NCBI GenBank assembly: GCA_036960375.1
Contig: JBALVY010000001.1
Location: 576,563 to 640,562 of the forward strand
Direction of reading: 5' to 3'
Length of the DNA: 64,000 nt
From: Pseudomonadales bacterium
GTDB lineage: Bacteria; Pseudomonadota; Gammaproteobacteria; Pseudomonadales; CAWVSB01
Shown: positions 2,506 to 64,000 of the stretch, piece after piece
How the letters are laid out: the number at the start of each line of letters is the position of its first letter
Numbering within the stretch: the stretch's first letter is position 1
Position numbers and translations under genes: made by a program
The notes under the pieces: model-generated
What the model was told of the DNA's origin: nothing
Seen by the model: the letters and a program-made list of their open reading frames with translations, nothing else
The model's database searches: none

Positions 2506-2602
2506 GTTATAAGTGTCCTGTGTTCACTTGAGCCTGTTTGATCCGTTGGCGGTGTTGTTACCATGGGTGCAATACTTCCATGCTGCGCCTGTCTTAACGA
2601 TA

Positions 2603-2687
2603 AGCCCACATTGTGGTCAGGCGGGCACAGGCAGCGGCGCCCGCAATGTGGGCTGGATGCTATTAAGGGATAGCCTGAGTAGCATCC
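2603..2687. promoter_or_regulatory. Nested palindromes in the divergent promoter region (candidate operator or stem-loops)
   Basis: AGCCCACATTG (2603-2613) and CAATGTGGGCT (2644-2654) form a perfect 11-nt inverted repeat enclosing GCGGGC...GCCCGC. GGATGCTA (2655-2662) and TAGCATCC (2680-2687) follow, then TGCTTTTG. Function not established. Confidence 0.25.
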
Positions 2688-2721
2688 TGCTTTTGATGAA
2701 CAGCTTGGGGTTTACTGACAT

Positions 2722-5028: not shown

Positions 5029-5030
5029 CA

Positions 5031-6188: not shown

Positions 6189-7639
6189 ACGCGCAATCTA
6201 TCGCGGCGCAACTTTCCGCACTGCCACTGTCTATGACCATAGATGGTATTGCTGTCGCCGCCGCCAAACAGCTCGATGTTATTAACCCGTCTACTGCCAC
6301 GGTGCTTAGCACCGCGCCGGATGCCAGTCCTGCCGAGATCGACCTGGCGGTGGATGCCGCCGCTCGTGCTTATCCTGCCTGGTCCGGACTGCCGATGGCG
6401 ACCCGCCGGACCGCTATCATGGCGCTGGCCGATGCACTTGAGGCTAATCGCGATGAGCTTACGCTGATCAATTCGCTGGAGTGCGGTGCGCCACTGAAGG
6501 TGGCCCGCTCAGTGGATGTCGCAATTCGCTACCTCAGGACAATCGCCGCTTTCGAGTTGCCGGTAGAGATACTGCGAGAGGACGCTACCCAACGTATCGA
6601 ACTGATGCGGGTGTCACTAGGAGTCGTTGCAGCTATTACGCCCTGGAATGCCCCCCTAACCCTGGCAGCCGCAAAAATTGCCTCTGCGCTGCTTGTGGGC
6701 AACACTATGGTGTTGAAACCCTCGCCTTTCGCGCCGTTGGCGACCCTGCGGCTGGGACAATTGGCCAGTGAGATTTTCCCGGCTGGCGTGCTTAATGTGG
6801 TCAGCGGCGGCGCGGCGGCGGGGGAGTCGCTGACGGGTCACCCGGACGTTGCCAAAGTGTCTTTCACCGGTTCGGTAGAGGTTGGTAAGCACATTATGTC
6901 CGCCGCCAGCGGTGGGCTGAAGCGTCTTACCCTCGAGCTTGGAGGCAATGACGCCGCAATCGTCCTGTCCGATACCGATCCCGTGGTAGCGGCGGCGGGT
7001 ATCGCTCGCATCGCTTTCTCTAATTGCGGTCAGTTCTGCATGGCGATCAAGCGCGTCTACGTCGAGCGACCGGTGGCCGAGGCCCTGTGTGATGCCCTGG
7101 TCAGGGAAGTATCGGCGAAGCGACTGGGTTCGGCCCTCGATCCAGGCACCGATATCGGCCCGGTGCAAAATGAACAGCAGTACCTGCGTCTGCAGGCCCT
7201 GCTTGAGGACACAAAAGCAGCCGGTGGCCGGTTTCTACTGGGCGGCGGAATTGGCGAGGTTTCTACAGGAGGCGGCTATTACATTTCGCCCGCTATTGTG
7301 ACCGGTCTCGATGAAACCGCTGAACTGGTGGCCAATGAGCAGTTTGGTCCCGTGCTGCCGGTGCTGGTAGTGGACTCCGCTGAGGAAGCTCTGGCGCGGG
7401 CCAATGCGAGCCGGTTCGGGCTGGGTGGCTCCGTTTGGGGCGCTGATGTGGCAAGGGCCACCGCCCTGGCGAGGCAGATGCAAGTGGGCACTGCTTGGGT
7501 AAATCAGCACGGCGCTCTGGACGCGGCGGTACCCATGAACGGGTGCAAAGAATCGGGCCTGGGTATTGAATATGGCATTGATGGTTTAAAGGGCTACACC
7601 GCACCCCGGGTGGTCAATATTCTGAAAACTACGAGATAA
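6179..7639 (+). CDS. NAD(P)+-dependent aldehyde dehydrogenase
   Basis: 486 aa. ALDH motifs LELGGND and FSNCGQFCMA (catalytic Cys). The start overlaps the ACAD stop (ATGGCAGTGA). Confidence 0.9.
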   Translation: MAVNAQSIAAQLSALPLSMTIDGIAVAAAKQLDVINPSTATVLSTAPDASPAEIDLAVDAAARAYPAWSGLPMATRRTAIMALADALEANRDELTLINSLECGAPLKVARSVDVAIRYLRTIAAFELPVEILREDATQRIELMRVSLGVVAAITPWNAPLTLAAAKIASALLVGNTMVLKPSPFAPLATLRLGQLASEIFPAGVLNVVSGGAAAGESLTGHPDVAKVSFTGSVEVGKHIMSAASGGLKRLTLELGGNDAAIVLSDTDPVVAAAGIARIAFSNCGQFCMAIKRVYVERPVAEALCDALVREVSAKRLGSALDPGTDIGPVQNEQQYLRLQALLEDTKAAGGRFLLGGGIGEVSTGGGYYISPAIVTGLDETAELVANEQFGPVLPVLVVDSAEEALARANASRFGLGGSVWGADVARATALARQMQVGTAWVNQHGALDAAVPMNGCKESGLGIEYGIDGLKGYTAPRVVNILKTTR

Positions 7640-7659
7640 AAAACGAGGCAGAATTAACA

Positions 7660-8028
7660 ATGACGGCGACAAACACAGCAGCAACACAGCGGCGGGTGGT
7701 CAAGGACAAGCCTGCTCATTTTTTCGACAGCCCTGAGACGGACATCCTTATGTCTATGGTGCTGGCCCTGGCGGGTGAGCTTTCGGTAGTGCGCGAGCGA
7801 CTCGATACCCACGAAAGGTTGAGCCAGTCCCAGGGCGGTTTCGACCCGGATGCGGTTAATCGTTATAAGCCGGATGCCGAGGTTGTGGCGCAGCGCAGCG
7901 CTGCGCGTAATAAGTATCTGAAACGCGTTCTTAGGGAAGCGCTGAACGAGGTGAGTAGAGCCAGTGACACGGACCCGCTTCTGTCCGGTGAAGCGCTGGC
8001 CGACATACTGACAGGACAAGGAAAATGA
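7660..8028 (+). CDS. Small predicted alpha-helical protein S1, family not recognised; paralog of 10417..10740
   Basis: 122 aa. It aligns without gaps to S2 over about 78 residues, roughly one third identical, sharing V-x-R-[ED]-R-L-D-T-x-E-x-L and P-D-x-E...Y. Its stop overlaps the start of the downstream methyltransferase (ATGA at 8025-8028). Confidence 0.6.
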   Translation: MTATNTAATQRRVVKDKPAHFFDSPETDILMSMVLALAGELSVVRERLDTHERLSQSQGGFDPDAVNRYKPDAEVVAQRSAARNKYLKRVLREALNEVSRASDTDPLLSGEALADILTGQGK

Positions 8029-9218
8029 GCAAACACATAACACCCGAAAATTACACTGGCGGCTTTGAGGGTCACCCTATGCTGCCGCAAACCGACCATG
8101 ACGAGCACGCGCAACAGGCTTTTGTGCTCAGTCTAAAGCAGCTGGTCAATGGCGAATTACTGGCGGGCACCCGTCAGTTATGCGAGCGCAAAGCCCGGGA
8201 AGAGCTTGGGCTGGACAGCACTCCAGCGCCAGAGGCCAGACATGCAGTACGTAAAATGATGGCCGGCACGTCGAGCTACCGTATCTGGAGTTCGCTGCTG
8301 CGCAATTCGCAGGAGCTGCTGTGGGACTACGTGGGCGAAAGCGTGGATCGACAGTTGGATGAACTGAATACCCGCGCAAACAGTATAGAAACACCGCTTG
8401 GCTCGCTGCGGCTGAATCCGGATTTCATGCTGCCCGGCTATCTTGCGGCAGTTGATCAGCACATTATGCCAGGTGGCTATGGCGACAACCCGGCGGACGA
8501 TGATGTTCGCTCCGGCGCTGTGTATGACCGCGGTGCCGCCCTATACCACATGGGGCAAGTTAATCTGCTCAACGACGTCCGCGGGCATACGCTGGCCGCT
8601 TATTTGCAAGATGTCTACGGTGAGCTGAAGCCGCTGCGCATTCTCGATATGGGCTGTACAGTTGGGCACAGTACCCTGGTGCTGTGTGACTATTTTCCCG
8701 ATGCCGAGATCCACGCCATCGACGTGGGCCCATCACAGTTGCGTTATGCCCATGCCCGCGCCGAACATTTGGGCAAGACCGTGCATTTCTCACAGCAGTC
8801 AGCGGAGTCTACCGACTTCGAGTCAGGCAGCTTTGATCTTGTGGTGTCCAGTGCGATGTTCCACGAGACCTCAACTGCCGCAGTACCGCAGATCATGCGC
8901 GAATGCATGCGCCTTTTGCGCCCGGGTGGTATTTGCGCGCACGCCGAGGTGCCCGTGCGCTACGACCGGATGCCGGTAGCCGACGTACTCATAAGGGACT
9001 GGCAGACCTACCATAACGGTGAGCCTTTCTGGGGTGGATGCGCGACTACCGATTTCGGTGCGGCACTCGAAGATGCCAGTTTTGTCGACGTGCAAACCGG
9101 TTTCCAGCCGGCGACCCGCGACGCCACTGATCCGACCCGTGGCCACTTTAGTAGCGAGGGTGATGCCTCCTTTCGCTACTGGTATCTGTTCGGAGGTAAG
9201 AAACCCAGTGATGCATGA
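8025..9218 (+). CDS. Class I SAM-dependent methyltransferase MT1 with an N-terminal extension of about 190 aa
   Basis: 397 aa. Motif I is ILDMGCTVGHST and post-I is IHAIDVGP; LLRPGG is also present. The N-terminal extension is shared with MT2 (QAF, LLWD, PGGY, DDV-x-x-GA). Confidence 0.8.
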   Translation: MSKHITPENYTGGFEGHPMLPQTDHDEHAQQAFVLSLKQLVNGELLAGTRQLCERKAREELGLDSTPAPEARHAVRKMMAGTSSYRIWSSLLRNSQELLWDYVGESVDRQLDELNTRANSIETPLGSLRLNPDFMLPGYLAAVDQHIMPGGYGDNPADDDVRSGAVYDRGAALYHMGQVNLLNDVRGHTLAAYLQDVYGELKPLRILDMGCTVGHSTLVLCDYFPDAEIHAIDVGPSQLRYAHARAEHLGKTVHFSQQSAESTDFESGSFDLVVSSAMFHETSTAAVPQIMRECMRLLRPGGICAHAEVPVRYDRMPVADVLIRDWQTYHNGEPFWGGCATTDFGAALEDASFVDVQTGFQPATRDATDPTRGHFSSEGDASFRYWYLFGGKKPSDA

Positions 9219-47229: not shown

Positions 47230-47409
47230 ATGAAAGAATTTATTCCCATCACTGACGATTATCTCGAACAGCACCCGGAAATCTTGCTACAGCTTGTACC
47301 GCTCCAACTAGATAGACCCTGTCGGCATTTGCTGGTTCCCGTAGAGCAGGAAAGCGGGCACAGCCCGACTATTAGCACACAGCTTGCGCAGGGGTATCGC
47401 CATGACTAG
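47230..47409 (+). CDS. Candidate small ORF (59 aa) upstream of and overlapping the sortase-target gene
   Basis: ATG 47230 is preceded by AAGGAAG. The product reads MKEFIPITDDYLEQHPEILLQLVPLQLDRPCRHLLVPVEQESGHSPTISTQLAQGYRHD. Its stop overlaps the target start (ATGACTAG). No family recognised. Confidence 0.3.
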   Translation: MKEFIPITDDYLEQHPEILLQLVPLQLDRPCRHLLVPVEQESGHSPTISTQLAQGYRHD

Positions 47410-49474
47410 GCAGCTTCTTCACACGCTGGGCCTGTTTTTTCTAATGATAGGTCAAGCTCAGGCGCTGCCGACCGAATGGCAGGAGGTGGAGAGCGGTACA
47501 CTGGTGTTGCAGTCAGACTCCGGTGAAGTGCTGGGTGCCGCGCCTTTGTTGAGCACCGAAGTGGAGCTTATTGTTACCGGCGTTATCGCCCGGGCCCATG
47601 TGTCACAGAGTTTTAGTAATCCGAGTCAGGATTGGGTCGAAGCGGTGTATGTCTTCCCTTTACCCGAGAACGCAGCCGTAGATCATCTTCGCTTGCGTAT
47701 TGGCGATCGCATTATAGAAGGACAGATAAAGGAAAAGCAGCAGGCCCGTAAAATATACGCAGAAGCGAAAGCCAAGGGTCAGCGCACCGGTTTGGTTGAG
47801 CAGCAGCGGCCCAACTTGTTTACCACCAGTGTTGCCAATATTCCCCCAGGCGAGTCGATTGTTGTGGAATTGGAGTATCAGCATACCGTTGAGCGGGAGG
47901 CGGGCGAATACAGACTGCGTTTTCCGATGACTTTAACTCCGCGCTACATTCCGAATGCCGGCAACGGTGCGTCCCAGATGGATATAGGTCGGGCGGATGC
48001 AGGCCGGGGGGAAATAGGCCAACCAGAGTCTAAGTCGATATTCACAGCTATTGCCGATGCGGTAGCGATTAGCCCGCCCATAGGGCGCCAGGGTGTGAAT
48101 AATCATCCTATTGATATCACCGTGCGTTTAAAAGCCGGTTTCCCCGTGGGTTTGGTAGAGAGCGTTGACCACCCGGCGACAATAGAGCGCGGCGATGAGG
48201 AGGTTGTTGTGCGCCTCGCGAAAGGCGATCACATGGCGAACGCCGACTTTCGTTTACGCTGGGCACCGGCAAGGAGTGAGCAAGCGCAAGCGGCTTTTTA
48301 TACCGAGACATGGCAAGGAGAGCTATACGGTTTACTGATGCTGGTGCCTCCCACCACGGAAGTGGATATTAAGCCGGTCCCGCGGGATGTGGTGTATGTG
48401 CTGGATACCTCGGGTTCTATGGGCGGGGAATCGATACGTCAGGCGAAGTCTGCGCTTATTATGGCCTTGGAGCGTTTGGGACCGAAAGACCGTTTTAATG
48501 TCATTGAATTTAATTCGGGTACCTGGTCACTCTGGCCAGATATTCAGGCGGCCAGTCCGGGCAATATTGCCATGGCGCGTTCCTATGTACATTCACTGGA
48601 GGCCCGGGGCGGTACCGAAATGCTTGGTGCCATGCAGCGCGCTCTTTGCCCAGATTGCACGCCCGAGGGCAGGGTTCGGCAGGTCATTTTTCTAACCGAC
48701 GGTGCGGTAGGAAACGAGCGCGGCCTGTTTGCTGCCATTCAACAGCGTTTGGGCCGAACGCGCTTGTTCACCGTGGGAATCGGTTCGGCGCCCAACAGCC
48801 ATTTTATGCGCAAGGCGGCGCAATTTGGTCGGGGCAGTTATACCTATATTGCTTCAACGTCGGAAGTGGCCAGAGCAATGTCGGAACTGTTCGCCAAAAT
48901 TGAGCGACCCGTTATGACCGATATTCAGCTGCAGTTAGATGGCAAAGTCGCCCGTGAGCAGTTTCCTAGCCCCATTGCAGATCTTTATTATGGCGAGCCG
49001 TTGATTGCCACCATGAAGTTGAACGGCCCCCCCTCTGAGGTGATGGTGGTGGGCACCATTGATGGTCAGGTGGTTAAGGCGCAAGTGCCGGTCGAGGTGA
49101 GTCCGCGTAGTGGGGTACACGTGGCTTGGGCGCGCAGCAAAGTTGAAAGCTTACAAGACCGCATGGTGGGCAGGGCAGAGCCGGATGCAGTGGCAAGCCT
49201 GCGTCAGGCATTGATCGACATCGGTTTGTTTCATCACATGGTGACACCGCATACCAGCTTGGTCGCTGTAGATGTCACACCTGTCCGTGCTGCAGATGAA
49301 ATGTTACAGAAGAAACGCCTGGCGAATAATCCGCCCAAGGGCACCCGCTTTGGTCTGGCGCAAACAGCGTCGCCGGCAAGCCTGTCTTTGACGCTGGGTT
49401 TAGTGCTGTTGTGTGTGGCATTCATTTTGTTTCGGTCTAAGGGCCATGAGCGGAGATCGTATGGAGCTGCGTAA
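47402..49474 (+). CDS. Sortase target protein with VIT and von Willebrand factor A domains
   Basis: 690 aa from ATG 47402. Signal peptide MTRQLLHTLGLFFLMIGQAQA. VIT region. vWA MIDAS motif VLDTSGSMGG. C-terminal tripartite sorting signal: LAQTAS, a hydrophobic stretch (LSLTLGLVLLCVAFILF), and a basic tail (RSKGHERR). Confidence 0.85.
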   Translation: MTRQLLHTLGLFFLMIGQAQALPTEWQEVESGTLVLQSDSGEVLGAAPLLSTEVELIVTGVIARAHVSQSFSNPSQDWVEAVYVFPLPENAAVDHLRLRIGDRIIEGQIKEKQQARKIYAEAKAKGQRTGLVEQQRPNLFTTSVANIPPGESIVVELEYQHTVEREAGEYRLRFPMTLTPRYIPNAGNGASQMDIGRADAGRGEIGQPESKSIFTAIADAVAISPPIGRQGVNNHPIDITVRLKAGFPVGLVESVDHPATIERGDEEVVVRLAKGDHMANADFRLRWAPARSEQAQAAFYTETWQGELYGLLMLVPPTTEVDIKPVPRDVVYVLDTSGSMGGESIRQAKSALIMALERLGPKDRFNVIEFNSGTWSLWPDIQAASPGNIAMARSYVHSLEARGGTEMLGAMQRALCPDCTPEGRVRQVIFLTDGAVGNERGLFAAIQQRLGRTRLFTVGIGSAPNSHFMRKAAQFGRGSYTYIASTSEVARAMSELFAKIERPVMTDIQLQLDGKVAREQFPSPIADLYYGEPLIATMKLNGPPSEVMVVGTIDGQVVKAQVPVEVSPRSGVHVAWARSKVESLQDRMVGRAEPDAVASLRQALIDIGLFHHMVTPHTSLVAVDVTPVRAADEMLQKKRLANNPPKGTRFGLAQTASPASLSLTLGLVLLCVAFILFRSKGHERRSYGAA

Positions 49475-50057
49475 TGTCTTAGCCCTTGTCACGGTGATGT
49501 TCTCGGTCGGTTTGTTTTGCCATGGTGGGTATATTCATGCCAAGGCAATATTGGCGCAATGGCTGATAGCCGATAGCTGGCAAGACACCTTGGCCGGTCA
49601 GGCGTCGGTACGACCTTGGCCCTGGGCCGATACCTGGCCGGTGGCGGCCCTGCGCGTGCCGCGCTTGGATATAGAGCAGTATGTTCTAGCCGGTGACTCA
49701 GGGCAGGCATTGGCCTTTGGCCCTGGTCACCATAGTGCCAGTTCCTTGCCGGGCTCCGTCGGAACGACTCTCATCAGTGGTCATCGAGATACCCATTTCT
49801 CCTTCGTGCGCGATTTGGTGTCTGGAGACACACTGGAATTACAGGGGCCAGATGGCGGTAGCTTGCGCTATCGCATCACACACATGCAGGTAGTGGATAG
49901 CCGGCAAGCGCTATGGTTTGAAGATACTTCGGGTCAATTATTGCTGGTGACCTGTTATCCCTTCGATGGTCTGAGCAGCAATACCCCTTGGCGCTACATG
50001 GTGAGCGCAGTACGCGAAATTCCAACACACCATCGTTTACTTCCTGACGCGCATTAG
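49461..50057 (+). CDS. Sortase (Gram-negative / marine proteobacterial type)
   Basis: 198 aa from ATG 49461; ATG 49446 is an alternative. N-terminal TM anchor. Catalytic-type motifs LISGHRDTHF, LLLVTCYPF and PWRYMV. Confidence 0.8.
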   Translation: MELRNVLALVTVMFSVGLFCHGGYIHAKAILAQWLIADSWQDTLAGQASVRPWPWADTWPVAALRVPRLDIEQYVLAGDSGQALAFGPGHHSASSLPGSVGTTLISGHRDTHFSFVRDLVSGDTLELQGPDGGSLRYRITHMQVVDSRQALWFEDTSGQLLLVTCYPFDGLSSNTPWRYMVSAVREIPTHHRLLPDAH

Positions 50058-50470
50058 TCACCAAGGCCGGTAATACGTATACCAGCATGAGACTTGTATT
50101 GTTTGTTAATAAAAATGAGTACCGAAGTCATTGCCTCAACGGCTGTCGCGTTGTAAATGGTGCCGGCATGGAAACCACGCATGCCCGCCGCCTCAACTAA
50201 CTCAATCACTGTGGCACGGGCTTCTTTGTCATTGTCACAGACTAGGACGTCACAGCTTAAATCTTGACCTTCTTTAAGGTGATGTGCCGCCACGTTCTGG
50301 AATGCTGATACAACTCTAACATCGCCGCCTAGCATTTCTTACGCTATTTGTCCGGCGGAACCTTCTTTAGGGAGTTGTACACAAGCAACTTTTGGTGGAA
50401 TTAAGGGCACGGTCACATCGACCAGTATCCTAATTTTGTTGGCAATCGTTAAAGTTTTCAAGTTGCCTAA
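50054..50470 (-). pseudogene. Remnant of an NADPH-dependent F420 reductase (NpdG-like) gene: 5-prime truncated with an in-frame TAA
   Basis: The minus-strand frame reads ...KIRILVDVTVPLIPPKVACVQLPKEGSAGQIA-TAA-EMLGGDVRVVSAFQNVAAHHL...DVLVCDNDKEARATVIELVEAAGMRGFHAGTIYNATAVEAMTSVLIFIN. The stop (TAA, plus-strand 50339-50341) interrupts otherwise continuous NpdG-like sequence. The Rossmann N-terminus (~85 aa) is absent. Confidence 0.7.
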
Positions 50471-50503
50471 TTACTTTGGCCGACTATTAACACCAACTAA
50501 TGT

Positions 50504-51487
50504 TCAGCTAGCGATCTCAAGAATAACCTTACCCCTAGCTTTACGCCCCGTCAGGCAATTAAAGGCTTCTTCGTAACGCTCCATTGGGAATACATCGGTA
50601 ACCACCGGGTTTAACTTTCCTTCAGCAAACAACTGCCATAGTTCAATGACATTCTGTTTGTTAACTTCAGGTTCCGCTGCGGCGAACGCTCCCCAAAAAA
50701 CACCAATAATGGAGCAGCCTTTTAATAAAGTGATATTAATCGGTATTTTGGGAATCGGGCCACTGGCAAAACCAATAACTAAAAATCGACCGTTCCATGC
50801 CATGCAACGTAAAGCCGCTTCAGAAAAATCACCCCCTACAGGATCATAAACTACATCGACACCGCGACCACCGGTAAGCTCTTTAACTTTATCTTTCAGC
50901 GCTTCGTTAGTGTAATTAATAAGATGGTCAGCGCCCATGGACTTAGCAAGTTCAAGTTTTTCATCAGTACTGGCCGCCGCAATAACTGTAGCACCCATGC
51001 TTTTGGCAATTTCAACAGCGGTAATACCTACACCGCCAGCGGCACCCAATACCAACACTGTTTCACCAGCCTGTAAATTTGCCCGCTGTTTCAAAGCATA
51101 ATAGGAGGTGAAGTAAGTCATGCTGACACCCGCCGCCTGAGTGAAACTCAGCCCTTCAGGCATGGGCAATACCATCTGCTGGGCGACCGCTATTTTTTCA
51201 GCGAAGAAGCCGTGGCTACCGATAGAAATAACTTTATCGCCGGGCTTAAAGCCTTTAACGCCATCTCCCACGGCTTCAACAACCCCAGAACACTCGCCAC
51301 CGGGTATAAAGGGCAGTTCGGGTTTTATCTGATACTTGCCTTCAATAATCAGCGTATCTGGAAAATTAAGGCCTGCAGCTTTAACGGCTATTTTAACATC
51401 ATTTGGAGATATTTCCGGTTCGGGGAAATCCGCATTCAGAACCAGCTTATCGGCTGCTCCTAATTTTTCACAAACAATAGCACGCAT
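50504..51487 (-). CDS. qor: NADPH:quinone oxidoreductase / zinc-type alcohol dehydrogenase family
   Basis: 327 aa. MDR-family layout: GLNFPD, PFIPGGECSGVV, GETVLVLGAAGGVG. Confidence 0.85.
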   Translation of the reverse strand: MRAIVCEKLGAADKLVLNADFPEPEISPNDVKIAVKAAGLNFPDTLIIEGKYQIKPELPFIPGGECSGVVEAVGDGVKGFKPGDKVISIGSHGFFAEKIAVAQQMVLPMPEGLSFTQAAGVSMTYFTSYYALKQRANLQAGETVLVLGAAGGVGITAVEIAKSMGATVIAAASTDEKLELAKSMGADHLINYTNEALKDKVKELTGGRGVDVVYDPVGGDFSEAALRCMAWNGRFLVIGFASGPIPKIPINITLLKGCSIIGVFWGAFAAAEPEVNKQNVIELWQLFAEGKLNPVVTDVFPMERYEEAFNCLTGRKARGKVILEIAS

Positions 51488-51660
51488 AGTGTTTTACCTT
51501 TGTTAATTTTGATTGCTGGGGAATAATTTTGTTCGCCAATAAAGAGTGGTTCTTGCGCTCAGCGTGGCTGTAACTTGGCTATTTCCTTTGACTTCGTGAG
51601 AAATTTCTCGGACTGTTTAAAACCGGATTCTAGATCTGCCTGGAAGCCAGTGTATTGCGC

Positions 51661-51776
51661 AATAGTGAGAGGCTAAAGAGGTTCCTGTATGCCAACAGAG
51701 GTTACCTCAAGTGAATTTTATATGCAACTACTTGCATATAAAATCACACTTCGATGTGTGAGCGTATTAGTATTTT
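51661..51776. repeat. Copy A of a 116-nt duplicated regulatory region (inverted relative to copy B)
   Basis: The reverse complement of 51661-51776 aligns without gaps to 52847-52962, with about 95 of 116 positions identical by my hand count. It contains the perfect palindrome TTATATGCAA-CTAC-TTGCATATAA (51718-51741). Confidence 0.8.
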
Positions 51777-51880
51777 AGGCCGATCCAAAATGGGAGGGGT
51801 CTTAAGATCGCTCAAAATCATTGAGGCACTGAAGCATCCGGGTGTTGAAGTTCCCCTTGTACCCAATCCGGCATAGCTCT

Positions 51881-52651
51881 TCATTGAAATTCTTCCTTTC
51901 TTTTGCGAAATTCATCACCTGCTGTGCTTAGCAAAATTTGCTGGCGATCTTCCATGGCCATAGCCGCGTCCATGCTGGGTGCGTCAATCGAGAAATTAAG
52001 CGCATCTTTGGTAAGCTGCAATCCCATTCTCGAGGTTGCTAACATGGCGTTAATCATTTCAGTGGGTGCGTCATCCAATTCTTCATCAGGAACAACTTTT
52101 GAAACCAGTCGATGTAAAGCTGCTTCTTGCGCGTAAATAAATCGACCAGTTAACAGTAACTCTGACGCAAGAGACGCCCCCACCAATCGAGGGAGAAAGT
52201 AACTTGAACCCATATCACAACCTGTTAAACCAATCGTTAAATAAGCCGCATTTAACTTAGCACTCTCTCCTGCAATACGTATATCCGACGCCAGGGCTAG
52301 AGAAAACCCCCCTCCGCAGGCCGCGCCTTTTATTATAGAAATGATAGGCTGCGGACACCGCCGCATCGCTTTATAGATATCACGAATATTTGTTTGACCC
52401 TTTAGGTTATCCTCAACACCGCTAGCGGTATTCACCTCCTTTAAATCAAGTCCGGCACAGAATGCACGCCCTGCTCCTCTTAAAACAATAATCCTTGTGT
52501 CTTTGTCGTCGTACTTATCCTCAAAATATCCTCGCAGTTGGCGTACCATTTCTTGACTTAAGGCATTGAGGCTTTCAGGCCGGTTCATGGTTACCCATTC
52601 GACTGCGCCGCGTTTTTCGATCAGTAATATTTCCGAATTTTCCTTCATCAT
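51881..52651 (-). CDS. Enoyl-CoA hydratase/isomerase (crotonase) family
   Basis: 256 aa. Crotonase motifs RGAGRAFCAGLDL and GAACGGGFSLALASD. Confidence 0.85.
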   Translation of the reverse strand: MMKENSEILLIEKRGAVEWVTMNRPESLNALSQEMVRQLRGYFEDKYDDKDTRIIVLRGAGRAFCAGLDLKEVNTASGVEDNLKGQTNIRDIYKAMRRCPQPIISIIKGAACGGGFSLALASDIRIAGESAKLNAAYLTIGLTGCDMGSSYFLPRLVGASLASELLLTGRFIYAQEAALHRLVSKVVPDEELDDAPTEMINAMLATSRMGLQLTKDALNFSIDAPSMDAAMAMEDRQQILLSTAGDEFRKRKEEFQ

Positions 52652-52846
52652 AGATCCACTTTTTTAAGAATTATTTACCTACAATATCCCTGAGGCTATC
52701 CCAGAGAATCGCCATTCATTGCTTATCTGATTTTGTTTCTTTTTAGGAACAAGGCGGCAAGGTAGTTTACAAAATGATGTAAGCCCATGCCAGAAAGGGC
52801 TGCCTGTAGTCACAATCAGTTTGAATCGGCTCTTTATTAGCCCCCG

Positions 52847-52962
52847 AAAATACTAACACGCTCAAACGCTGATATGTGATTTTATGTGCAAATAGTTGCA
52901 TATGGACTTCGCTTGCGGTAACTTCTTTTGACTGACAGGAACCTCTTTAGGTTCTCACTATT
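52847..52962. repeat. Copy B of the 116-nt duplicated regulatory region
   Basis: See copy A. Its palindrome variant is ATGTGCAA-ATAG-TTGCATAT (52884-52903). It ends 15 nt before the LLM oxidoreductase ATG. Confidence 0.8.
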
Positions 52963-52977
52963 TTAAGGGTGAATATT

Positions 52978-54018
52978 ATGAAGTTAGGGGCTTTGCTGGG
53001 GTATTCTGGACGAAAAATCCAGATCAGTATTGAATTGATAAAATACGCTGAGAGTTTGGGTTACGACTCGGTTTGGACGTCTGAGGCCTATGGCTCAGAT
53101 GCGATCACAGTGGCTACCTGGATACTGGCACAAACGGAGAAAATTCGTGTGGGTACGGCCATTATGCAAATGCCGGCGCGTACTCCTGCCATGGCTGCTA
53201 TGACAGCTATGTCGTTGGCACAGCTTTCTGATAATCGCTTTATCGCAGGTTTAGGGGCATCGGGCCCTCAAGTGGTTGAGGGCTGGCATGGCGTACCCTA
53301 TGGTAAGCCTGTGACACGTACGCGTGAATACATACAGATCATGCGGGAGATCATGGCGCGTAAAGGCCCAGTGGAATTTAATGGCGATGTTTACCAAATG
53401 CCCAATAACAGCGAGGGCACCACAGGTTTAGGAAAGCCACTTAAAACAATACTAGATCCCAACCCTGACATTCCTATTTATACAGCATCGATTACCCCCG
53501 CTGGGCTGCGTTGCGCGGGGGCTGAGGCCGATGGTGTCTTTCCCGTATGGATGGATCCCGATAAATACGATGTCATTGGTGAACATCTGCAAAAAGGTTT
53601 CGATGCATCAGGCACCGCTAAGAGTTTGAAAAATTTCGATGTGGCGCCGTTTGTTTCAATCGCGATGCAGGATGACTTAGAGGCGGCGTTTGATTCCCTG
53701 CGTCCTTGGTTAGCCCTTTACATTGGCGGAATGGGCGCAAAGGGTAAGAACTTCTATAACGACTATGCCACACGTTTGGGTTATGGCGATGCTGCCGAGC
53801 GAATCCAAGACTTGTATTTAAGTGGCAAAAAATCCGAAGCGGAAGCGCTAGTACCTAACGCACTAATTGATGAGGTGGCTTTGGTCGGCCCCGCAGGGCG
53901 TATACGCGAAAGGCTACAGCGCTGGAAAGACGCAGGCCGCCGTGGCGAAGTGGGCACAATGATAGTTAGTGTTTATGAGCCGGAAGTAATGAAGCTACTC
54001 GCGGATGAATTGCTGTAA
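52978..54018 (+). CDS. Luciferase-like monooxygenase (LLM) family oxidoreductase, of the class usually annotated F420-dependent
   Basis: 346 aa from ATG 52978 (RBS AAGGGTG). MKLGALLGYSG...AESLGYDSVWTSEAYGSDAITVATWILAQTEKIRVGTAIMQMPARTPAMAAMTAMSLAQLSDNRFIAGLGASGPQVVEGWHG. The cofactor cannot be read from the sequence. Confidence 0.8.
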   Translation: MKLGALLGYSGRKIQISIELIKYAESLGYDSVWTSEAYGSDAITVATWILAQTEKIRVGTAIMQMPARTPAMAAMTAMSLAQLSDNRFIAGLGASGPQVVEGWHGVPYGKPVTRTREYIQIMREIMARKGPVEFNGDVYQMPNNSEGTTGLGKPLKTILDPNPDIPIYTASITPAGLRCAGAEADGVFPVWMDPDKYDVIGEHLQKGFDASGTAKSLKNFDVAPFVSIAMQDDLEAAFDSLRPWLALYIGGMGAKGKNFYNDYATRLGYGDAAERIQDLYLSGKKSEAEALVPNALIDEVALVGPAGRIRERLQRWKDAGRRGEVGTMIVSVYEPEVMKLLADELL

Positions 54019-54039
54019 TAAATTGTTAAGAGGAGTTCA

Positions 54040-55227
54040 ATGATGAGTGATCTCGAAAAATTTCGTTTAGAAACCCGAACGTGGCTGGAAGACAATTGTC
54101 CACAGTCACAGAGGGAGCCGATTACCAGTGGGGCAGATCAGTACTGGGGAGGCCGTAATCCTGAGACAAATCATCCAGACCAAAAGGTCTGGGTAGACCG
54201 TATGGGCGCCAAGGGTTGGACCACACCAGAATGGCCAGCCGAATATGGCGGCGGCGGTTTAAACAAACAAGAAACAAAAATTTTGGCTGAGGAAATGCGA
54301 GTGATCGGCGCACGTACCCCTCTCTACAGCTTCGGTATATCCATGCTTGGGCCAGCACTAATAATGCATGGCTCAGAAGAACAAAAGCACGAGCATATAC
54401 CCAAAATTATTCGTGGTGAAATTCGTTGGTGTCAGGGTTACTCAGAGCCGGGTGCGGGTTCAGATTTGGCAAGTTTACAAACGAAGGCCGAGGACATGGG
54501 CGATCATTACCGCGTCAATGGCTCTAAGGTATGGACGTCTGATGCCGACAAATCTGATTGGATTTTTTGCTTAACACGTACGGATAACACCGGCACCAAG
54601 CACCAAGGAATTAGCATACTGTTGTTCGATATGCGTAGCGAAGGTGTAACAACAAAACCCATATTATTAATTAGCGGTTACTCTCCCTTTTGCGAAACCT
54701 TTTTCGATAATGTCAGCGTTCCTAAAGGCAACTTGATGGGGCCAGAGGGTGAAGGTTGGGCGATTGCTAAGTACATACTAACGCATGAGCGTGAAATGAT
54801 ATCCGAAGCGGGAAATTCAGCCGGTGATGGAGTGAATTTGGGTCAACAGGCGATTGAAGCGATCGGCGTTGACGAGCAGGGGCGCTTAGATGATCCGATT
54901 TTACGTCAACAAATTGCAAAATTAGAATTGGATAGCCTGGCGTTTACTAACACCTTGGTACGAGTCGGAGACGAAAGTAAATCGACTCAAGGTATGGGCG
55001 CGGCTTCATCTATTTTTAAATATTACGGCACTGAACTGAACAAGCGTCGATTTGAAATTCTGATGGCTGCATCCGGCAGCAATGGTTTAGGTTGGGACGG
55101 TGATAAATATGAGGGCGGACTATTACCGCGTGCTTGGTTACGTACCAAAGCGAATACCATTGAAGGTGGTACCTCCGAGGTTCAATTAAACATTATATCC
55201 AAGCGTGTTCTGGGTTTACCCAGTTAA
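54040..55227 (+). CDS. Acyl-CoA dehydrogenase family protein (catalytic-type subunit)
   Basis: 395 aa. FadE-like N-terminus. The C-terminal TIEGGTSEVQ keeps the catalytic Glu position. Confidence 0.85.
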   Translation: MMSDLEKFRLETRTWLEDNCPQSQREPITSGADQYWGGRNPETNHPDQKVWVDRMGAKGWTTPEWPAEYGGGGLNKQETKILAEEMRVIGARTPLYSFGISMLGPALIMHGSEEQKHEHIPKIIRGEIRWCQGYSEPGAGSDLASLQTKAEDMGDHYRVNGSKVWTSDADKSDWIFCLTRTDNTGTKHQGISILLFDMRSEGVTTKPILLISGYSPFCETFFDNVSVPKGNLMGPEGEGWAIAKYILTHEREMISEAGNSAGDGVNLGQQAIEAIGVDEQGRLDDPILRQQIAKLELDSLAFTNTLVRVGDESKSTQGMGAASSIFKYYGTELNKRRFEILMAASGSNGLGWDGDKYEGGLLPRAWLRTKANTIEGGTSEVQLNIISKRVLGLPS

Positions 55228-55250
55228 CAGAGGCGTAAGAGGAACAGACT

Positions 55251-56384
55251 ATGGCATTGGTATTAAGTGAAGAGCAGTTAATGTTAAAAGATTCTGCGAC
55301 GGGGTTTCTTTCAGATAAAGCACCTGTGGCGGCATTGCGTAAGTTACGCGATGAAAAAAACGCTACGGGTTATTGTAAAAAACTATGGCGTGAAATGGTC
55401 GAGATGGGTTGGGCGGGTATTACCATTCCTGAAGAATTTGGCGGTGCAGGATACGGTTATACGGGTCTGGGAATTATCCTTGAACAAGTGGGTCGCAACC
55501 TCACTGCCTCGCCACTGGAGTCGACGGTATTGGTTGCTGCAACGGTCATTAGCGAAGCCGGTACTCAAGCACAAAAGGAAGCGCTGTTACCGGCGATTGC
55601 CTCAGGTGAATTACTGGTGAGCTTAGCTTTGCAGGAAGGGGCACTCCATGCGCCACATAAAACCGCTACAACCGCCGTGCCACAAGGTGATGGATATGTA
55701 TTAAACGGCTGCAAAACATTGGTGCTAGACGCCCATGTTGCAAACCAGTTTATTATTGTGGCGCGAATAAGTGGTGCTGTTGGCGATGCCAATGGCTTAG
55801 GTCTATTTTTGGTAGACGCCGATCAGGTTGAAGTCTCACGCGATATTATGGTCGATAGCCGTAATTATGGAACGCTGACCATAACGAATGTTAGTGTCAG
55901 CTCAAGTGCGATATTGGGGCGGCTGGAAACGGCAGATGCCTCATTAAGCCGGTCGTTGGATATTGCCAATATTGGTCTCAGCGCACAGTTGCTCGGTTTA
56001 TCAATGGAGGCCTATGAGCGCACCCTAGAATACCTGAAGCAGCGCGAGCAGTTTGGAGAGCTTATAGGTAGCTTTCAGGCCTTACAGCACCGCGCAGCAG
56101 AAATGTATACGGAACTAGAGTTATGTAAATCGATGGTTTTACGGTCACTTCAAGCCATTGACAACAACGATACCCAGTTATCATTGTTAGCGACGGGGAC
56201 GAAGGCAAAGTTATGTGAGGTAGCCGAGATCGTGACAAACGAAGCCATTCAAATGCATGGTGGCATTGGCATGACAGATGAGTTCGAAATAGGTTTCTTT
56301 ATTAAACGTGCAAGAGCGGTACAGGTAACCTTTGGTGGTTATAGTTATCACATTGATCGCTTTGCTAAACTCAGTGGCTTTTGA
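55251..56384 (+). CDS. Acyl-CoA dehydrogenase family protein lacking the canonical catalytic Glu (partner-type subunit)
   Basis: 377 aa with the ACAD fold. The equivalent C-terminal motif reads VTFGGYSYH, with Phe where Glu is expected. Confidence 0.8.
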   Translation: MALVLSEEQLMLKDSATGFLSDKAPVAALRKLRDEKNATGYCKKLWREMVEMGWAGITIPEEFGGAGYGYTGLGIILEQVGRNLTASPLESTVLVAATVISEAGTQAQKEALLPAIASGELLVSLALQEGALHAPHKTATTAVPQGDGYVLNGCKTLVLDAHVANQFIIVARISGAVGDANGLGLFLVDADQVEVSRDIMVDSRNYGTLTITNVSVSSSAILGRLETADASLSRSLDIANIGLSAQLLGLSMEAYERTLEYLKQREQFGELIGSFQALQHRAAEMYTELELCKSMVLRSLQAIDNNDTQLSLLATGTKAKLCEVAEIVTNEAIQMHGGIGMTDEFEIGFFIKRARAVQVTFGGYSYHIDRFAKLSGF

Positions 56385-56452
56385 TTAAAAGGCTTTACCA
56401 CCAGCTTAGCGACGATACAAGCTGTCGTTATATAAAAGTTGAAGGAGTACAA

Positions 56453-57229
56453 ATGTCTAATGAATTTTGTAGTGTCGAACGCGATGGTCATTTAACCATT
56501 GTCACGCTTAATCGGCCCGAAGTGATGAACGCCGTTCATCCATTAATGAGCTATGAACTCGATGTTATCTGGAACGATTTTGAGAGTGATCCCGATCAAT
56601 GGGTTGCTATTATTACCGGTGCGGGAGACCGTGCTTTTTCGGCGGGTAATGACCTAAAATATGCGGCGAGTGGAGGTAGTATTACTCTGCCTGACAGTGG
56701 CTTTGCTGGGATTACCAATCGCTTTAACATGACTAAGCCCGTTATCGCGGCCGTGAATGGTACTACCATGGGCGGCGGGTTTGAAATTGCGTTAATGGCT
56801 GACATTATTATAGCCGCTGAAAATGCTGTATTTTCATTCCCTGAGCCCAAAGTAGGGTTGGCTGCTTTATCCGGTGGTATGCATCGTCTGCCACGAATGA
56901 TTCCTTATCAGCAGGCGATGGGTATGCTGTTAACATGTCGTCAGGTTGCCGCGGCGGAAGGTAAAGCAATGGGTTTTGTCACAGAGGTCGTTCCGCAAGG
57001 GTCGGCGCTGGAGGAGGCAAAGAAATGTGCAGCCATGATTTTAGAGTGCTCTCCCATGTCTATCAGAGCGACAAAAGAATCAGTAGTTGAAGGTTTGAAG
57101 GAAAAAGACGTAGAGACAGCGATGTCTATACATTACCCTTCTATAGTAGCTCTATTTAATAGTGAAGACATTCGTGAAGGCCCGACAGCTTTTGCGGAAA
57201 AGCGTGCGCCTCAATGGAAGGGTCGTTAA
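56453..57229 (+). CDS. Enoyl-CoA hydratase/isomerase (crotonase) family
   Basis: 258 aa from ATG 56453 (RBS GAAGGAG; MSNEFCSVERDGHLTIVTLNRPEVMNA). TGAGDRAFSAGNDL and NGTTMGGGFEIALMAD. Confidence 0.85.
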   Translation: MSNEFCSVERDGHLTIVTLNRPEVMNAVHPLMSYELDVIWNDFESDPDQWVAIITGAGDRAFSAGNDLKYAASGGSITLPDSGFAGITNRFNMTKPVIAAVNGTTMGGGFEIALMADIIIAAENAVFSFPEPKVGLAALSGGMHRLPRMIPYQQAMGMLLTCRQVAAAEGKAMGFVTEVVPQGSALEEAKKCAAMILECSPMSIRATKESVVEGLKEKDVETAMSIHYPSIVALFNSEDIREGPTAFAEKRAPQWKGR

Positions 57230-61563: not shown

Positions 61564-64000
61564 TCAGAAAGCGTATTTCAATACCAGCTCGGTGGTGCGA
61601 GGCTGCATGTAAATATCATAGGGGTCGCGGGCCAAAGATCCTGTGGCGTTAAAGACCCTGTCATCTGAGTCCGTCAGGTTCTTAACATGCAAGGTTACGC
61701 TCCAGGAGTCGGTCTGCAGACCTGCTCGGACATCCGCGCGGGCGAAGCCGTCAGTCTTTGCTGTTTCACCACCGCTACCATAGGCATATTTCTCGCCGGT
61801 ATAGCTGGCAAATATTCCGGCGACGATGCTGGAGCCCTCGAACCAGGAAACTGATCGGTTGTAGTCCAGGGAGGCGAAGCCGGTCCAGTCGGGAACTCCC
61901 TGAATCGGATCCCCATCACTCACACTCGCTCCTGGCAGTGTATCCAGGTACTCCGATTCCATCAGGTTAACACCCGCGCCCACCGTAATGGTCTCCGTTG
62001 CTGCCCAATTCATGCTGGCTTCGAGGCCGTAGCTCCTAGCATCGCCGGGGTTTTCCTTTATAACGCTAGTCGTTAACGCACCGAACTGGGGATCGATGAT
62101 CCACTCGGTTAGTTCAAGAATGGTGTCCTGCCAATCGTTGTAGTAGATGGCAGTGTCGAAATACAAGCTGTCTGTGGCAAACCACTTCGCACCGATCTCG
62201 TAGGCGGTCAGGTTTTCCTCGTCAGTGAACGGCTGCGCCTTGAAACCGGCGGGGCGGTTGACGAATACAGCGGTTTGGGTGAGGCCAAAGTTCGGCGCCC
62301 CTGACCGCTGTCCAGTAGAAACGCTGAAGTAGTTCATCAGGTCGTCGGTCCAATTTACCTTGAGGTTAATCCTGCCGGTGACACCGTCAAAGGTCTCTTC
62401 CGAGGGATTGTCCAGCCCCTGCTCGGCCATCAAATCACTGTAGAACTCACTCCGTTCAGTCGACTTTCGCTCGTCTTCGAAGTAACGCAAACCGACGGTC
62501 AGTTCCATTTTGTCGGTGAACGCGTAGCTAACCTCACCGAACACTGCCTGCTGATCCGACTCGATGCTACTCTCGACAAGGGTTATCTGGTCGAGGGCCG
62601 TAACGGATGGTAAGGGTATTACGACGGGGTCGGGGCCGAGGCCGTAAAGGGTCACCACGCCGGCAGGATTGGTAGTGTCCAAGTCGGCTGAGGGGGCGAT
62701 GGCCGCAGAGAGATCAAAGTGCTCCTCGTGCTCCAGAGAATAGTAACCGGCGGTCCAACTGAGAGGGCCGTCATTTTTTGAGGCGAGCCGAATCTCATAG
62801 TTATTGGTTTCCAGCGAAGAGCCCTGGAAGCCATCTCGGGGACCGGCCATTTGCCCAAGCCCGTAAGATTCCTCCTCCATCCGGTTCGCTGTCGCGTAAA
62901 GCTGGATGGAATCGAATTCATAGGTGAGCGCAGTCGTATACAGCTCGTATTCACCGCTATCGACCTGCAAGGTACCCGCTGGTCCTGCCGCCGTCTCAGT
63001 AACACTGCCAGGTGTGGGCGGCATCAATGCGGCAATGTTCTGCGTGTATACATCTGTCAACTGCTGGTTAATCGTTTCGGCGTACAGGGGATAGTAGGGG
63101 CCGAGCATCTCTTGAAAGATCGGTGTTATGGCACCTACAGTTATCGCGGTCGTAGTGGAAGTGAAAGCGTGATCCGTGCCGCCCTTCACCTCGAAATTAT
63201 AGTCCGAATCGGAGTAAATGGGGGCGGATTCGACGTCATATTTATGATATCCGACATCGAGTCGCAAGCGCGCATTGGGAGTAAAGCCGAACTGCACCTT
63301 GTAGTTTTTGCCGTCCAACTCATTGAAATCGTCCGGGCCATTAATGTAGTCTAGCCAGCCAGCCCGATCGCGATTGTGAGCGGTTAATCTTACGGCGAGT
63401 TTGTCTGCCACGATGGGAATGTTAACAACCCCGGCAATTGTGTGGCCGTCTCCACCACCGGAAATGGTGTGGGCTCCCAGTTCGATCTTGCCAGAGAAAC
63501 CACCCTCGGTATCAGCTTTGTTACTCAGGATACGTATGGTGCCACCGGTTGAGCCGGCACCGTAAAGAGTGCCTTGTGGACCCTTCAATACTTCCACGCG
63601 CTCCAGGTCGAAGGGGATAATCTCCGGCGTTGATACGCCTAGCAGGCTGACATAGGAGAAATCGTCAATGTAGTAACCGACCAATGCATCACCGCGACTC
63701 GCCGAGATACCGCGAATTTGAATAGTGGTTGCACGGGGGTTGGTCTTAGTCAGCGAGGCGCCAGGCGAGCGCTCTATCACTGCGTTGATACTAGTGGCGG
63801 CTAGGTCTTCGAGGGTCGCCCCAGATATTGCATTAATGCCCATCGCCGTGTCTGATAAGGCAGTGCCGGTAGCGCCTTTAAGTGCGGTAACAAGAACCTC
63901 TTCAAGTAGTCGTTCTCGCTCTTCGGCCTGCGTGGTAAATGTACTGACAGCTGCTGCGAGAGCCAGTACTGGTGTGGCAAATTTGACTGTGTTGCGGTAC
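61564..64000 (-). CDS. TonB-dependent outer-membrane receptor (N-terminus at or beyond the right edge)
   Basis: The frame stays open upstream of the track start (63843) to the window edge. There it reads ...KFATPVLALAAAVSTFTTQAEERERLLEEVLVTALKGATGTALSDTAMGINAISG..., a signal peptide plus a TonB-box region. C-terminal ...ELVLKYAF. Confidence 0.85.
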   Translation of the reverse strand, partial: YRNTVKFATPVLALAAAVSTFTTQAEERERLLEEVLVTALKGATGTALSDTAMGINAISGATLEDLAATSINAVIERSPGASLTKTNPRATTIQIRGISASRGDALVGYYIDDFSYVSLLGVSTPEIIPFDLERVEVLKGPQGTLYGAGSTGGTIRILSNKADTEGGFSGKIELGAHTISGGGDGHTIAGVVNIPIVADKLAVRLTAHNRDRAGWLDYINGPDDFNELDGKNYKVQFGFTPNARLRLDVGYHKYDVESAPIYSDSDYNFEVKGGTDHAFTSTTTAITVGAITPIFQEMLGPYYPLYAETINQQLTDVYTQNIAALMPPTPGSVTETAAGPAGTLQVDSGEYELYTTALTYEFDSIQLYATANRMEEESYGLGQMAGPRDGFQGSSLETNNYEIRLASKNDGPLSWTAGYYSLEHEEHFDLSAAIAPSADLDTTNPAGVVTLYGLGPDPVVIPLPSVTALDQITLVESSIESDQQAVFGEVSYAFTDKMELTVGLRYFEDERKSTERSEFYSDLMAEQGLDNPSEETFDGVTGRINLKVNWTDDLMNYFSVSTGQRSGAPNFGLTQTAVFVNRPAGFKAQPFTDEENLTAYEIGAKWFATDSLYFDTAIYYNDWQDTILELTEWIIDPQFGALTTSVIKENPGDARSYGLEASMNWAATETITVGAGVNLMESEYLDTLPGASVSDGDPIQGVPDWTGFASLDYNRSVSWFEGSSIVAGIFASYTGEKYAYGSGGETAKTDGFARADVRAGLQTDSWSVTLHVKNLTDSDDRVFNATGSLARDPYDIYMQPRTTELVLKYAF

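Follow-up and report, generated by a model that had tools for sequence, protein, structure and literature searches.

A putative AphA-type PadR operator within an inverted duplication at an acyl-CoA-oxidation locus of a marine Pseudomonadales bacterium

In contig JBALVY010000001.1 of a Pseudomonadales bacterium (assembly GCA_036960375.1), a single crotonase gene lies between two inverted copies of an intergenic segment, each with a strong palindrome, and the locus raises the question of what this segment does and how it came to be present twice. The window, i.e. the whole stretch of DNA that was analysed, comprises 64,000 nucleotides (positions 576,563 to 640,562 of the forward strand); all coordinates given below for this organism are those of the window. 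An earlier note, made from the sequence alone, had read the pair as one operator/promoter/leader unit copied to co-regulate the genes on both flanks. The explanation favoured here, with moderate confidence, is that a promoter/operator segment was duplicated in inverted orientation. Its core would be an operator of AphA-type PadR regulators, serving an operon of an LLM gene, two acyl-CoA dehydrogenase (ACAD) genes and a crotonase gene, and possibly its neighbours.

The inverted repeat and its palindromes

A repeat search of the window returns an inverted pair at 51661-51779 and 52844-52962, with arms of 119 nt that are 82% complementary and separated by 1,064 nt. The MAFFT alignment of the copies has 97 identities in 119 positions and no gaps, and blastn of the window against itself, as the earlier note had proposed, finds the pair with E = 6.8e-29 and no third copy in the 64 kb. 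The gap-free match of 116 nt with about 95 identities, previously counted by hand, was correct and extends 3 nt further on the inner side. As also described before, both copies face outward and enclose the crotonase gene, copy A toward a qor-like gene and copy B toward the LLM operon; 15 nt separate the end of copy B from the LLM ATG (52978). Copy A had been placed about 175-290 nt upstream of qor and is located 174-292 nt upstream of its ATG, with 173 nt in between. The copies and their palindromes, named box A and box B, are:

51661..51779, minus strand: copy A, whose forward orientation is the minus strand, toward qor
51716..51743, no strand assigned: box A, a perfect 28-nt palindrome TTTTATATGCAA-CTAC-TTGCATATAAAA with its 20-nt core at 51720-51739
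52844..52962, plus strand: copy B, reading toward the LLM operon
52884..52903, no strand assigned: box B, ATGTGCAA-ATAG-TTGCATAT, written in full ATGTGCAAATAGTTGCATAT

The dyad common to both copies is ATATGCAA-N4-TTGCATAT, 20 bp long, exact in box A and with one mismatch (A3>G) in box B. The palindrome of copy A is perfect, as had been claimed, and longer than stated; the single mismatch attributed to copy B holds for the core, but not for arms of 10 nt, which differ at three positions, against one over 8 nt. Box A precedes the qor ATG by 232 nt and follows the crotonase stop codon at a distance of 141 nt; box B precedes two start codons, the LLM ATG by 74 nt and the ATG of the divergent crotonase by 232 nt. 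With up to 3 mismatches the core occurs three times in the window, against an expectation of 0.37, the third occurrence (43960, 3 mismatches) being within a coding region. The half-site variant ATGTGCAA of box B recurs in a site of Robiginitomaculum (L029).

Divergence between the copies is uniform along the repeat: the 20-nt blocks have 14-18 identities each, and the longest uninterrupted match is about 17 nt. Two blocks noted earlier as conserved, TGTGATTTTAT and ACAGGAACCTCTTTAG, are indeed identical in copies A and B, although by our own estimate runs of roughly this length are to be expected at an identity of 82% over 119 nt. Since the arms are only 82% identical, the repeat is not an assembly fold-back, which would yield identical copies. 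A large inverted segmental duplication is likewise ruled out, the enclosed crotonase and that of the operon being only 29% identical.

Exact matches to the non-operator block ACAGGAACCTCTTTAGNNTCTCAC number 0 in the metagenome collection, and the plasmid collection contains nothing that matches the repeat region. The outer flanks, GTATTGCGC before copy A and TTAAGGGTG after copy B, have no direct repeat in common that would indicate a target-site duplication, and no break in composition was found. A weak match to a 16-mer of the repeat at 63890 (13/16, 3 mismatches) is consistent with chance, the expectation being 0.3 per window. These results support a duplication that is confined to one locus, has two copies and faces outward, and speak against a dispersed element of the repetitive extragenic palindromic (REP) or miniature inverted-repeat transposable element (MITE) kind, which the earlier note had named as the finding that would overturn its reading.

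The 232 nt between box A and the qor ATG (51488-51719) equal those between box B and the crotonase ATG (52652-52883). No hidden direct homology stands behind this, as the local alignment score of the two spacers is 9 and the shuffle mean 9.5, and the equal spacing is probably a coincidence. TGCAA-N4-TTGCA was also considered as a sigma-54 promoter, and this reading was rejected because the GG expected at -24 is missing.

The match of the palindrome to the AphA box

The AphA box of Vibrio, as derived from footprints, is ATATGCA-N6-TGCATAT (PMC3440409), and the AphA motif from chromatin immunoprecipitation sequencing (ChIP-seq) is ATGCAA-N4-TTGCAT, AphA being a repressor at the loci studied, with single or adjacent sites (PMC6855506). 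Box A agrees with the footprint box in 14 of 14 specified positions and with the ChIP-seq motif in 12 of 12, box B in 13 of 14 and 11 of 12, respectively. AphA-like PadR regulators, as the term is used here, combine a winged-helix PadR domain (PF03551) with a Vir_act_alpha_C domain (PF10400).

The box is tightly associated with genes for such regulators elsewhere. A scan of 185,579 species genomes for the exact pattern ATTTTATNTGCAANNNNTTGCATAT returned 26 DNA stretches, and a scan of the metagenome collection for TTTTATNTGCAANNNNTTGCATAT a further 97. Genome matches at the start of a gene for a PadR plus Vir_act_alpha_C protein occur in Allohahella, three Undibacterium species and a metagenome-assembled genome (MAG) of Crocinitomicaceae, and 8 of the 97 metagenome stretches have the match at the start of a gene from the same PadR family. 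This places the box at the start of an AphA-like PadR gene in 13 of 123 pattern-matching stretches, with a chance expectation far below one. When the genes beside the matches are clustered, the PadR family is among the two largest groups. Boxed PadR genes are usually paired with a divergent gene for a CrtI-like FAD oxidoreductase; in Undibacterium the partner is a FadH-like reductase. The pattern also recurs beside unrelated neighbours, which include Acidobacteria PEP-CTERM loci and genes for RelB, radical SAM proteins and M42 peptidases.

The reverse test started from PadR homologues picked by protein search alone, the contigs of which were then checked for the box and were not selected by pattern. 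All four distinct PadR loci possess it in their upstream intergenic DNA, in the manner of an autoregulatory site:

L143: upstream box with 0 mismatches
L145: upstream box with 0 mismatches
L141: upstream box with 1 mismatch
L146: two upstream sites with 2 mismatches each

The PadR protein of L143 has its best match among solved structures in V. cholerae AphA (PDB 1YG2; E 2e-33, residues 1-175, full length). At PadR genes the box is located 46-94 nt from the start codon, a range that includes the 74 nt between box B and the LLM ATG. Several PadR loci have a second perfect box, beyond what the pattern demands, 28-50 nt from the first. Tandem boxes, present upstream of many AphA-like PadR genes, are:

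L049: 3082 and 3132
L074: 4747 and 4775 (the same in L134)
L083: 1284 and 1333
L146: 5946 and 5983

Their distances of 28-50 nt recall the cooperative adjacent AphA sites of V. cholerae.

The palindrome is very probably a transcription-factor operator. Because it matches the published AphA motif and co-occurs with PadR genes elsewhere, the operator is assigned to PadR-family regulators of the AphA-like kind, not to the TetR- or GntR-type regulator that the earlier note had expected.

Boxes are also present beside genes for acyl-CoA or lipid redox enzymes. An operon of two short-chain dehydrogenase/reductase (SDR) genes, an APH gene and two ACAD genes (SDR-SDR-APH-ACAD-ACAD, 2685-7636) follows the box at a distance of about 30 nt in Robiginitomaculum (L029), the ACADs being 60% and 42% identical to the ACAD pair of the window. 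In Hellea (L036) an SDR-SDR-APH-ACAD operon (2431-6309) likewise follows the box, a few tens of nucleotides away. At PadR genes and at these two loci taken together, boxes are about 30-95 nt from the start codon. In Undibacterium the box is located between the PadR gene and the FadH-like gene (Oxidored_FMN and Pyr_redox_2 domains), which, by our own reading of the domains, would encode a dienoyl-CoA reductase. The presence of the box beside such genes in Alpha-, Beta- and Gammaproteobacteria fits the gene content of the window. A literature search for a link of PadR or AphA to acyl-CoA dehydrogenase or dienoyl-CoA reductase returned nothing relevant.

The cluster that follows the box in these two Hyphomonadaceae (L029, L036), with SDR, SDR, APH kinase and ACAD genes, resembles the kinase plus ACAD logic of 4-hydroxy-acid catabolism (ACAD10/11, Lva-type). 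In Acidobacteria (Acidiferrales-like; L013, L018, L028, L031, L035 and L037) a conserved stretch GTGGATTTTATCTGCAATTGSTTGCATAT with conserved flanks is found about 210 nt from a gene for a PEP-CTERM protein of about 190 aa, with no PadR gene nearby, and recurs in about 9 metagenome loci (e.g. L050, L087, L090, L100 and L101). It is a separate conserved element with the same dyad by happenstance.

Proposed repression by a PadR regulator and the competing explanations

The genes that flank the two copies are:

50504..51487, minus strand: qor-like NAD(P)H quinone oxidoreductase of the zinc-dependent alcohol dehydrogenase (Zn-ADH) superfamily, PIG3-family-like, downstream of copy A
51881..52651, minus strand: crotonase of the enoyl-CoA hydratase/isomerase family (Pfam ECH_1, E 2e-48), enclosed by the two copies
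52978-54018, plus strand: LLM, Rv3520c-type, with ATG at 52978 and the longest open reading frame (ORF) from GTG 52969 (TIGR03559, 370 bits, above the cut-off of 335)
54040-55227, plus strand: large ACAD, PimC-like, match below the equivalog cut-off
55251-56384, plus strand: small ACAD, PimD-like, match below the equivalog cut-off
56381-57229, plus strand: crotonase, EchA19/DpgD-like, match below the equivalog cut-off

The last four form the operon downstream of copy B (52978..57229, plus strand) in the order LLM-ACAD-ACAD-crotonase. The qor-like protein matches TIGR02824 with 267 bits, under the cut-off of 297; as the alignment covers residues 1-324, the ATG at 51487 is supported as its start. 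The enclosed crotonase and the LLM protein are both 100% identical to proteins of one Pseudomonadales MAG, the crotonase to NCBI MEH6548885.1.

On the explanation favoured here, a segment of about 119 bp with an operator, and probably a promoter, would have been duplicated in inverted orientation, leaving copy B ahead of the LLM operon, in the intergenic region shared with the divergent crotonase gene, and copy A between crotonase and qor. In each copy the 20-bp dyad would be the part that functions, as the operator for AphA-like PadR regulators; a PadR dimer, encoded outside the window, would bind each dyad and occlude an overlapping promoter, and the acyl-CoA-oxidation genes would stay repressed until a signal, probably lipid-derived, releases the regulator. 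Repression is probable for the LLM-ACAD-ACAD-crotonase operon, possible for the divergent crotonase and less certain for qor, on which copy A would have to act.

A promoter scan finds TTTATA-16-TAAAAT hexamers across box A in both directions, with no equivalent in copy B. A sigma-70 candidate common to the copies, TTGCAT-17-TAACYT, is below the scan criteria, its -35 element matching in 3 of 6 positions:

52896..52924, plus strand: candidate in copy B, -35 TTGCAT (right half-site of the box), 17-nt spacer, -10 TAACTT
51727-51699, minus strand: equivalent in copy A, -10 TAACCT

In copy B it would start transcription about 47 nt before the LLM ATG. Of the operator/promoter/leader unit proposed earlier, the local two-copy duplication with a probable operator stands; outside the palindrome the copies have no conserved promoter that passes the scan criteria, no conserved RNA structure and no conserved small ORF.

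Regulator genes were searched in the window by tblastn for PadR and by Pfam on nearly every ORF of 120 aa or more. The window contains two IclR genes and one OmpR-type two-component pair only, all distant from the repeat locus; TetR and GntR genes are lacking in the window, as had been noted before, and the IclR genes, 15 kb and 35 kb away, have no AphA-type box nearby.

Several observations weigh against repression by a PadR regulator at this locus. The same tblastn and Pfam searches find no PadR gene in the 64-kb window either, and no PadR from the source contig is among the 30 homologues listed; the cognate AphA-like PadR would have to be encoded outside the window. Box A, 232 nt from the qor ATG, is far away for a repressor site. 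Box B has G where 41 of 42 symmetrised half-sites have A. The identity of the boxes (18/20) is not clearly above that of the remaining repeat (79/99), so the two copies do not demonstrate selection on the box, and no promoter passing the scan criteria is common to both. Finally, the LLM orthologue loci of Halieaceae (L039-L043) are without the box, even at 3 mismatches, so the association is a lineage-specific one.

The nearest named relatives of the LLM protein are from Halieaceae, and these Halieaceae-like loci differ from the window in further respects. Orthologues with 78-81% identity (L039, L041 and L043, at about 4600-8850) belong to a conserved ACAD-ACAD-LLM-SDR operon beside dnaK-dnaJ-dapB, followed downstream by genes for AceK, an acyl-CoA thioesterase and a 430-aa double-TetR regulator, whereas the window has the order LLM-ACAD-ACAD-ECH and no TetR gene. 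The nearest relatives of the enclosed crotonase are, by name, from Oceanicoccus and HTCC2143. Its orthologues (88%, L001 6001-6768; 88%, L005 1493-2260; 74%, L009 6001-6774) occur in three unrelated contexts, beside an MscS channel gene, beside ADH and ACAD genes, and between a BCCT transporter gene and SbcC, and from these contexts the gene seems to relocate often. None of these three has the repeat, and the box is absent from all the crotonase orthologue loci (L001-L012), even with 3 mismatches allowed. Given the differing contexts and the lack of the box in orthologous loci, the arrangement in the window is lineage-specific and rearranged.

Such rearrangement leads to the alternative that survives best, in which the duplication is a neutral by-product of events around the crotonase gene, only copy B works, and copy A is decaying or incidental and has no effect on qor. 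The 232 nt between box A and the qor ATG, set against about 30-95 nt at the PadR genes and in L029 and L036, agree with it, as do the even spread of divergence along the repeat and the rearranged state of the locus, with its unrelated crotonase contexts and an LLM/ACAD order unlike that of its relatives. However, it is copy A, not copy B, that has the perfect 28-nt palindrome and the two-way promoter-like hexamers, and a decaying copy is expected to be the less perfect one; by a rough estimate of our own, all 16 core positions would stay intact by chance at about 18% divergence with only modest likelihood. We regard a neutral copy A as unlikely, though it deserves to be kept in mind.

A structured RNA encoded by the repeat (a leader, attenuator, riboswitch or small RNA), with the palindrome as an RNA hairpin, appears very improbable. 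In outward orientation both copies fold better than shuffled controls (z -3.5 for A, -2.2 for B), the A>G exchange of copy B preserves the hairpin through a G-U pair, and copy A contains a short hairpin followed by a T-run, terminator-like for the crotonase transcript. This hairpin is missing from copy B, however, and the structures predicted for both strands of both copies agree in the palindrome hairpin only and differ beyond it. Rfam has no match to the repeat even at E up to 1, the single hit over 50000-54500 being an irrelevant viral family in the LLM gene, far under its gathering threshold. Small ORFs of 29 aa in copy A and 44 aa in copy B were rejected as genes, since 6 of 18 aligned residues differ; they share a reading frame because the DNA itself is repeated. 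The palindrome, moreover, is fully explained as the PadR operator that is found beside PadR genes in other phyla.

Equally hard to credit is a mobile or invertible crotonase cassette with the arms as terminal inverted repeats, be it MITE-like, composite, or a switch by site-specific or homologous inversion. It would account for inverted repeats that bracket a single gene and for the three differing contexts of the closest crotonase orthologues (88%, 74%), and a short non-coding repeat containing a palindrome is indeed what MITE and REP elements look like. Yet here there are two copies at one locus, inverted around a gene, with no others found in the window, in the metagenome search for the non-operator part or among plasmids; the orthologous crotonase loci have no box; the outer ends show no target-site duplication; there is no composition break; and the genes annotated in the window include neither a transposase nor a recombinase. 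Inversion by RecA needs more than the arms offer, 82% identity with a longest perfect run of about 17 nt being too short for it to be efficient.

An operator of another family (TetR, GntR, IclR or other) is scarcely to be expected, for although fatty-acid and acyl-CoA regulons are usually under TetR-, GntR- or MerR-type control, a double-TetR gene lies near the orthologous operon of related Halieaceae and the window has two IclR genes, the sequence matches exactly the AphA motif obtained by experiment and is found together with AphA-like PadR genes, no box is present in those Halieaceae loci that have the TetR gene, the window has no TetR or GntR gene and its IclR genes are far off and without a box.

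Known systems and further features of the window

The system closest to the PadR operator proposed here is that of Vibrio AphA, with which it shares both published motifs (PMC3440409, PMC6855506) and a dyad fit for a dimer; a promoter-proximal position is suggested by the typical 74 nt between box B and the LLM ATG, but not by the atypical 232 nt between box A and that of qor. Published AphA sites overlap -35 or -10 elements, repress, and may be adjacent or in tandem, as are the boxes of L049, L074 and L083. In other genomes, PadR genes next to the box encode full-length homologues of AphA (1YG2). In contrast to Vibrio, the host is a marine Pseudomonadales MAG, Oceanicoccus- or Spongiibacteraceae-like, the targets are acyl-CoA and lipid-oxidation enzymes instead of quorum-sensing, virulence or competence genes, and the site is inside a 119-nt inverted duplication, with a regulator that the window does not contain and that is postulated from the operator.

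Classical PadR/LmrR-type operators are of the form ATGT-N8-ACAT (B. subtilis PadR, L. lactis LmrR), and the regulators are winged-helix dimers, usually ligand-released repressors of an adjacent catabolic or detoxification gene. The box shares the half-site geometry, with ATGC-N8-GCAT embedded in it, but its half-site is different and longer, and the subfamily has the AphA-type C-terminal domain PF10400. Fatty-acid degradation is regulated by FadR (GntR), by PsrA, FadP and LiuQ (TetR) and by LiuR (MerR). A recurrent palindromic operator upstream of acyl-CoA dehydrogenase, enoyl-CoA hydratase and reductase genes is common to these regulons and to the present case, whereas regulator family and motif are others here, and nothing indicates an acyl-CoA ligand.

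Motif and regulator family are already well described. What is new is the host lineage and the set of target genes, with the inverted duplication as a minor curiosity. If the proposed operator is real, an otherwise unassigned acyl-CoA oxidation cluster of an uncultured marine gammaproteobacterium gains a testable regulator, and the AphA box known from Vibrio has kept almost its exact sequence far outside the vibrios, beside metabolic and not virulence genes, which bears on the ligand of AphA and on its original role. The duplicated segment would then be a small, concrete case of regulon growth by a copied operator-bearing segment. More tentatively, an AphA-like PadR regulator and the ATATGCAA-N4-TTGCATAT box may constitute an old, widespread lipid/acyl-CoA redox regulon of Gamma-, Beta- and Alphaproteobacteria and Bacteroidota, in which the virulence and quorum role of Vibrio is a late specialisation of a metabolite-sensing repressor and which new genes join by a copied 119-bp operator/promoter cassette. 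Its core targets would be the CrtI-like FAD oxidoreductase, the FadH-like reductase, PimC/PimD-like ACAD pairs and, at the present locus, the LLM operon, the crotonase and qor. None of these readings overturns current understanding.

Three other regions of the window contain further features. At 47384-50057 the gene for a VIT-VWA protein (696 aa) overlaps with a sortase gene that comes after it, a sortase being uncommon in a Gram-negative gammaproteobacterium; the pair is preceded on the opposite strand by an OmpR-type response regulator and a histidine kinase. The ORF of a TonB-dependent receptor (61564-63843, minus strand) has its Plug domain from residue 3 and no signal peptide, and the true start is probably upstream or disrupted; the adjoining stretch 63844-64000 contains the weak 13/16 match at 63890. 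The region 1303-30000 is dense in catabolic genes, with two proteins of about 760 aa that each have two CoA-transferase family III matches, several ACADs, two aldehyde dehydrogenases, a PhyH dioxygenase, flavin reductases, tandem methyltransferases and an arylmalonate-decarboxylase-like gene, a content that suggests a large island for the degradation of branched or cyclic lipids or terpenoids.

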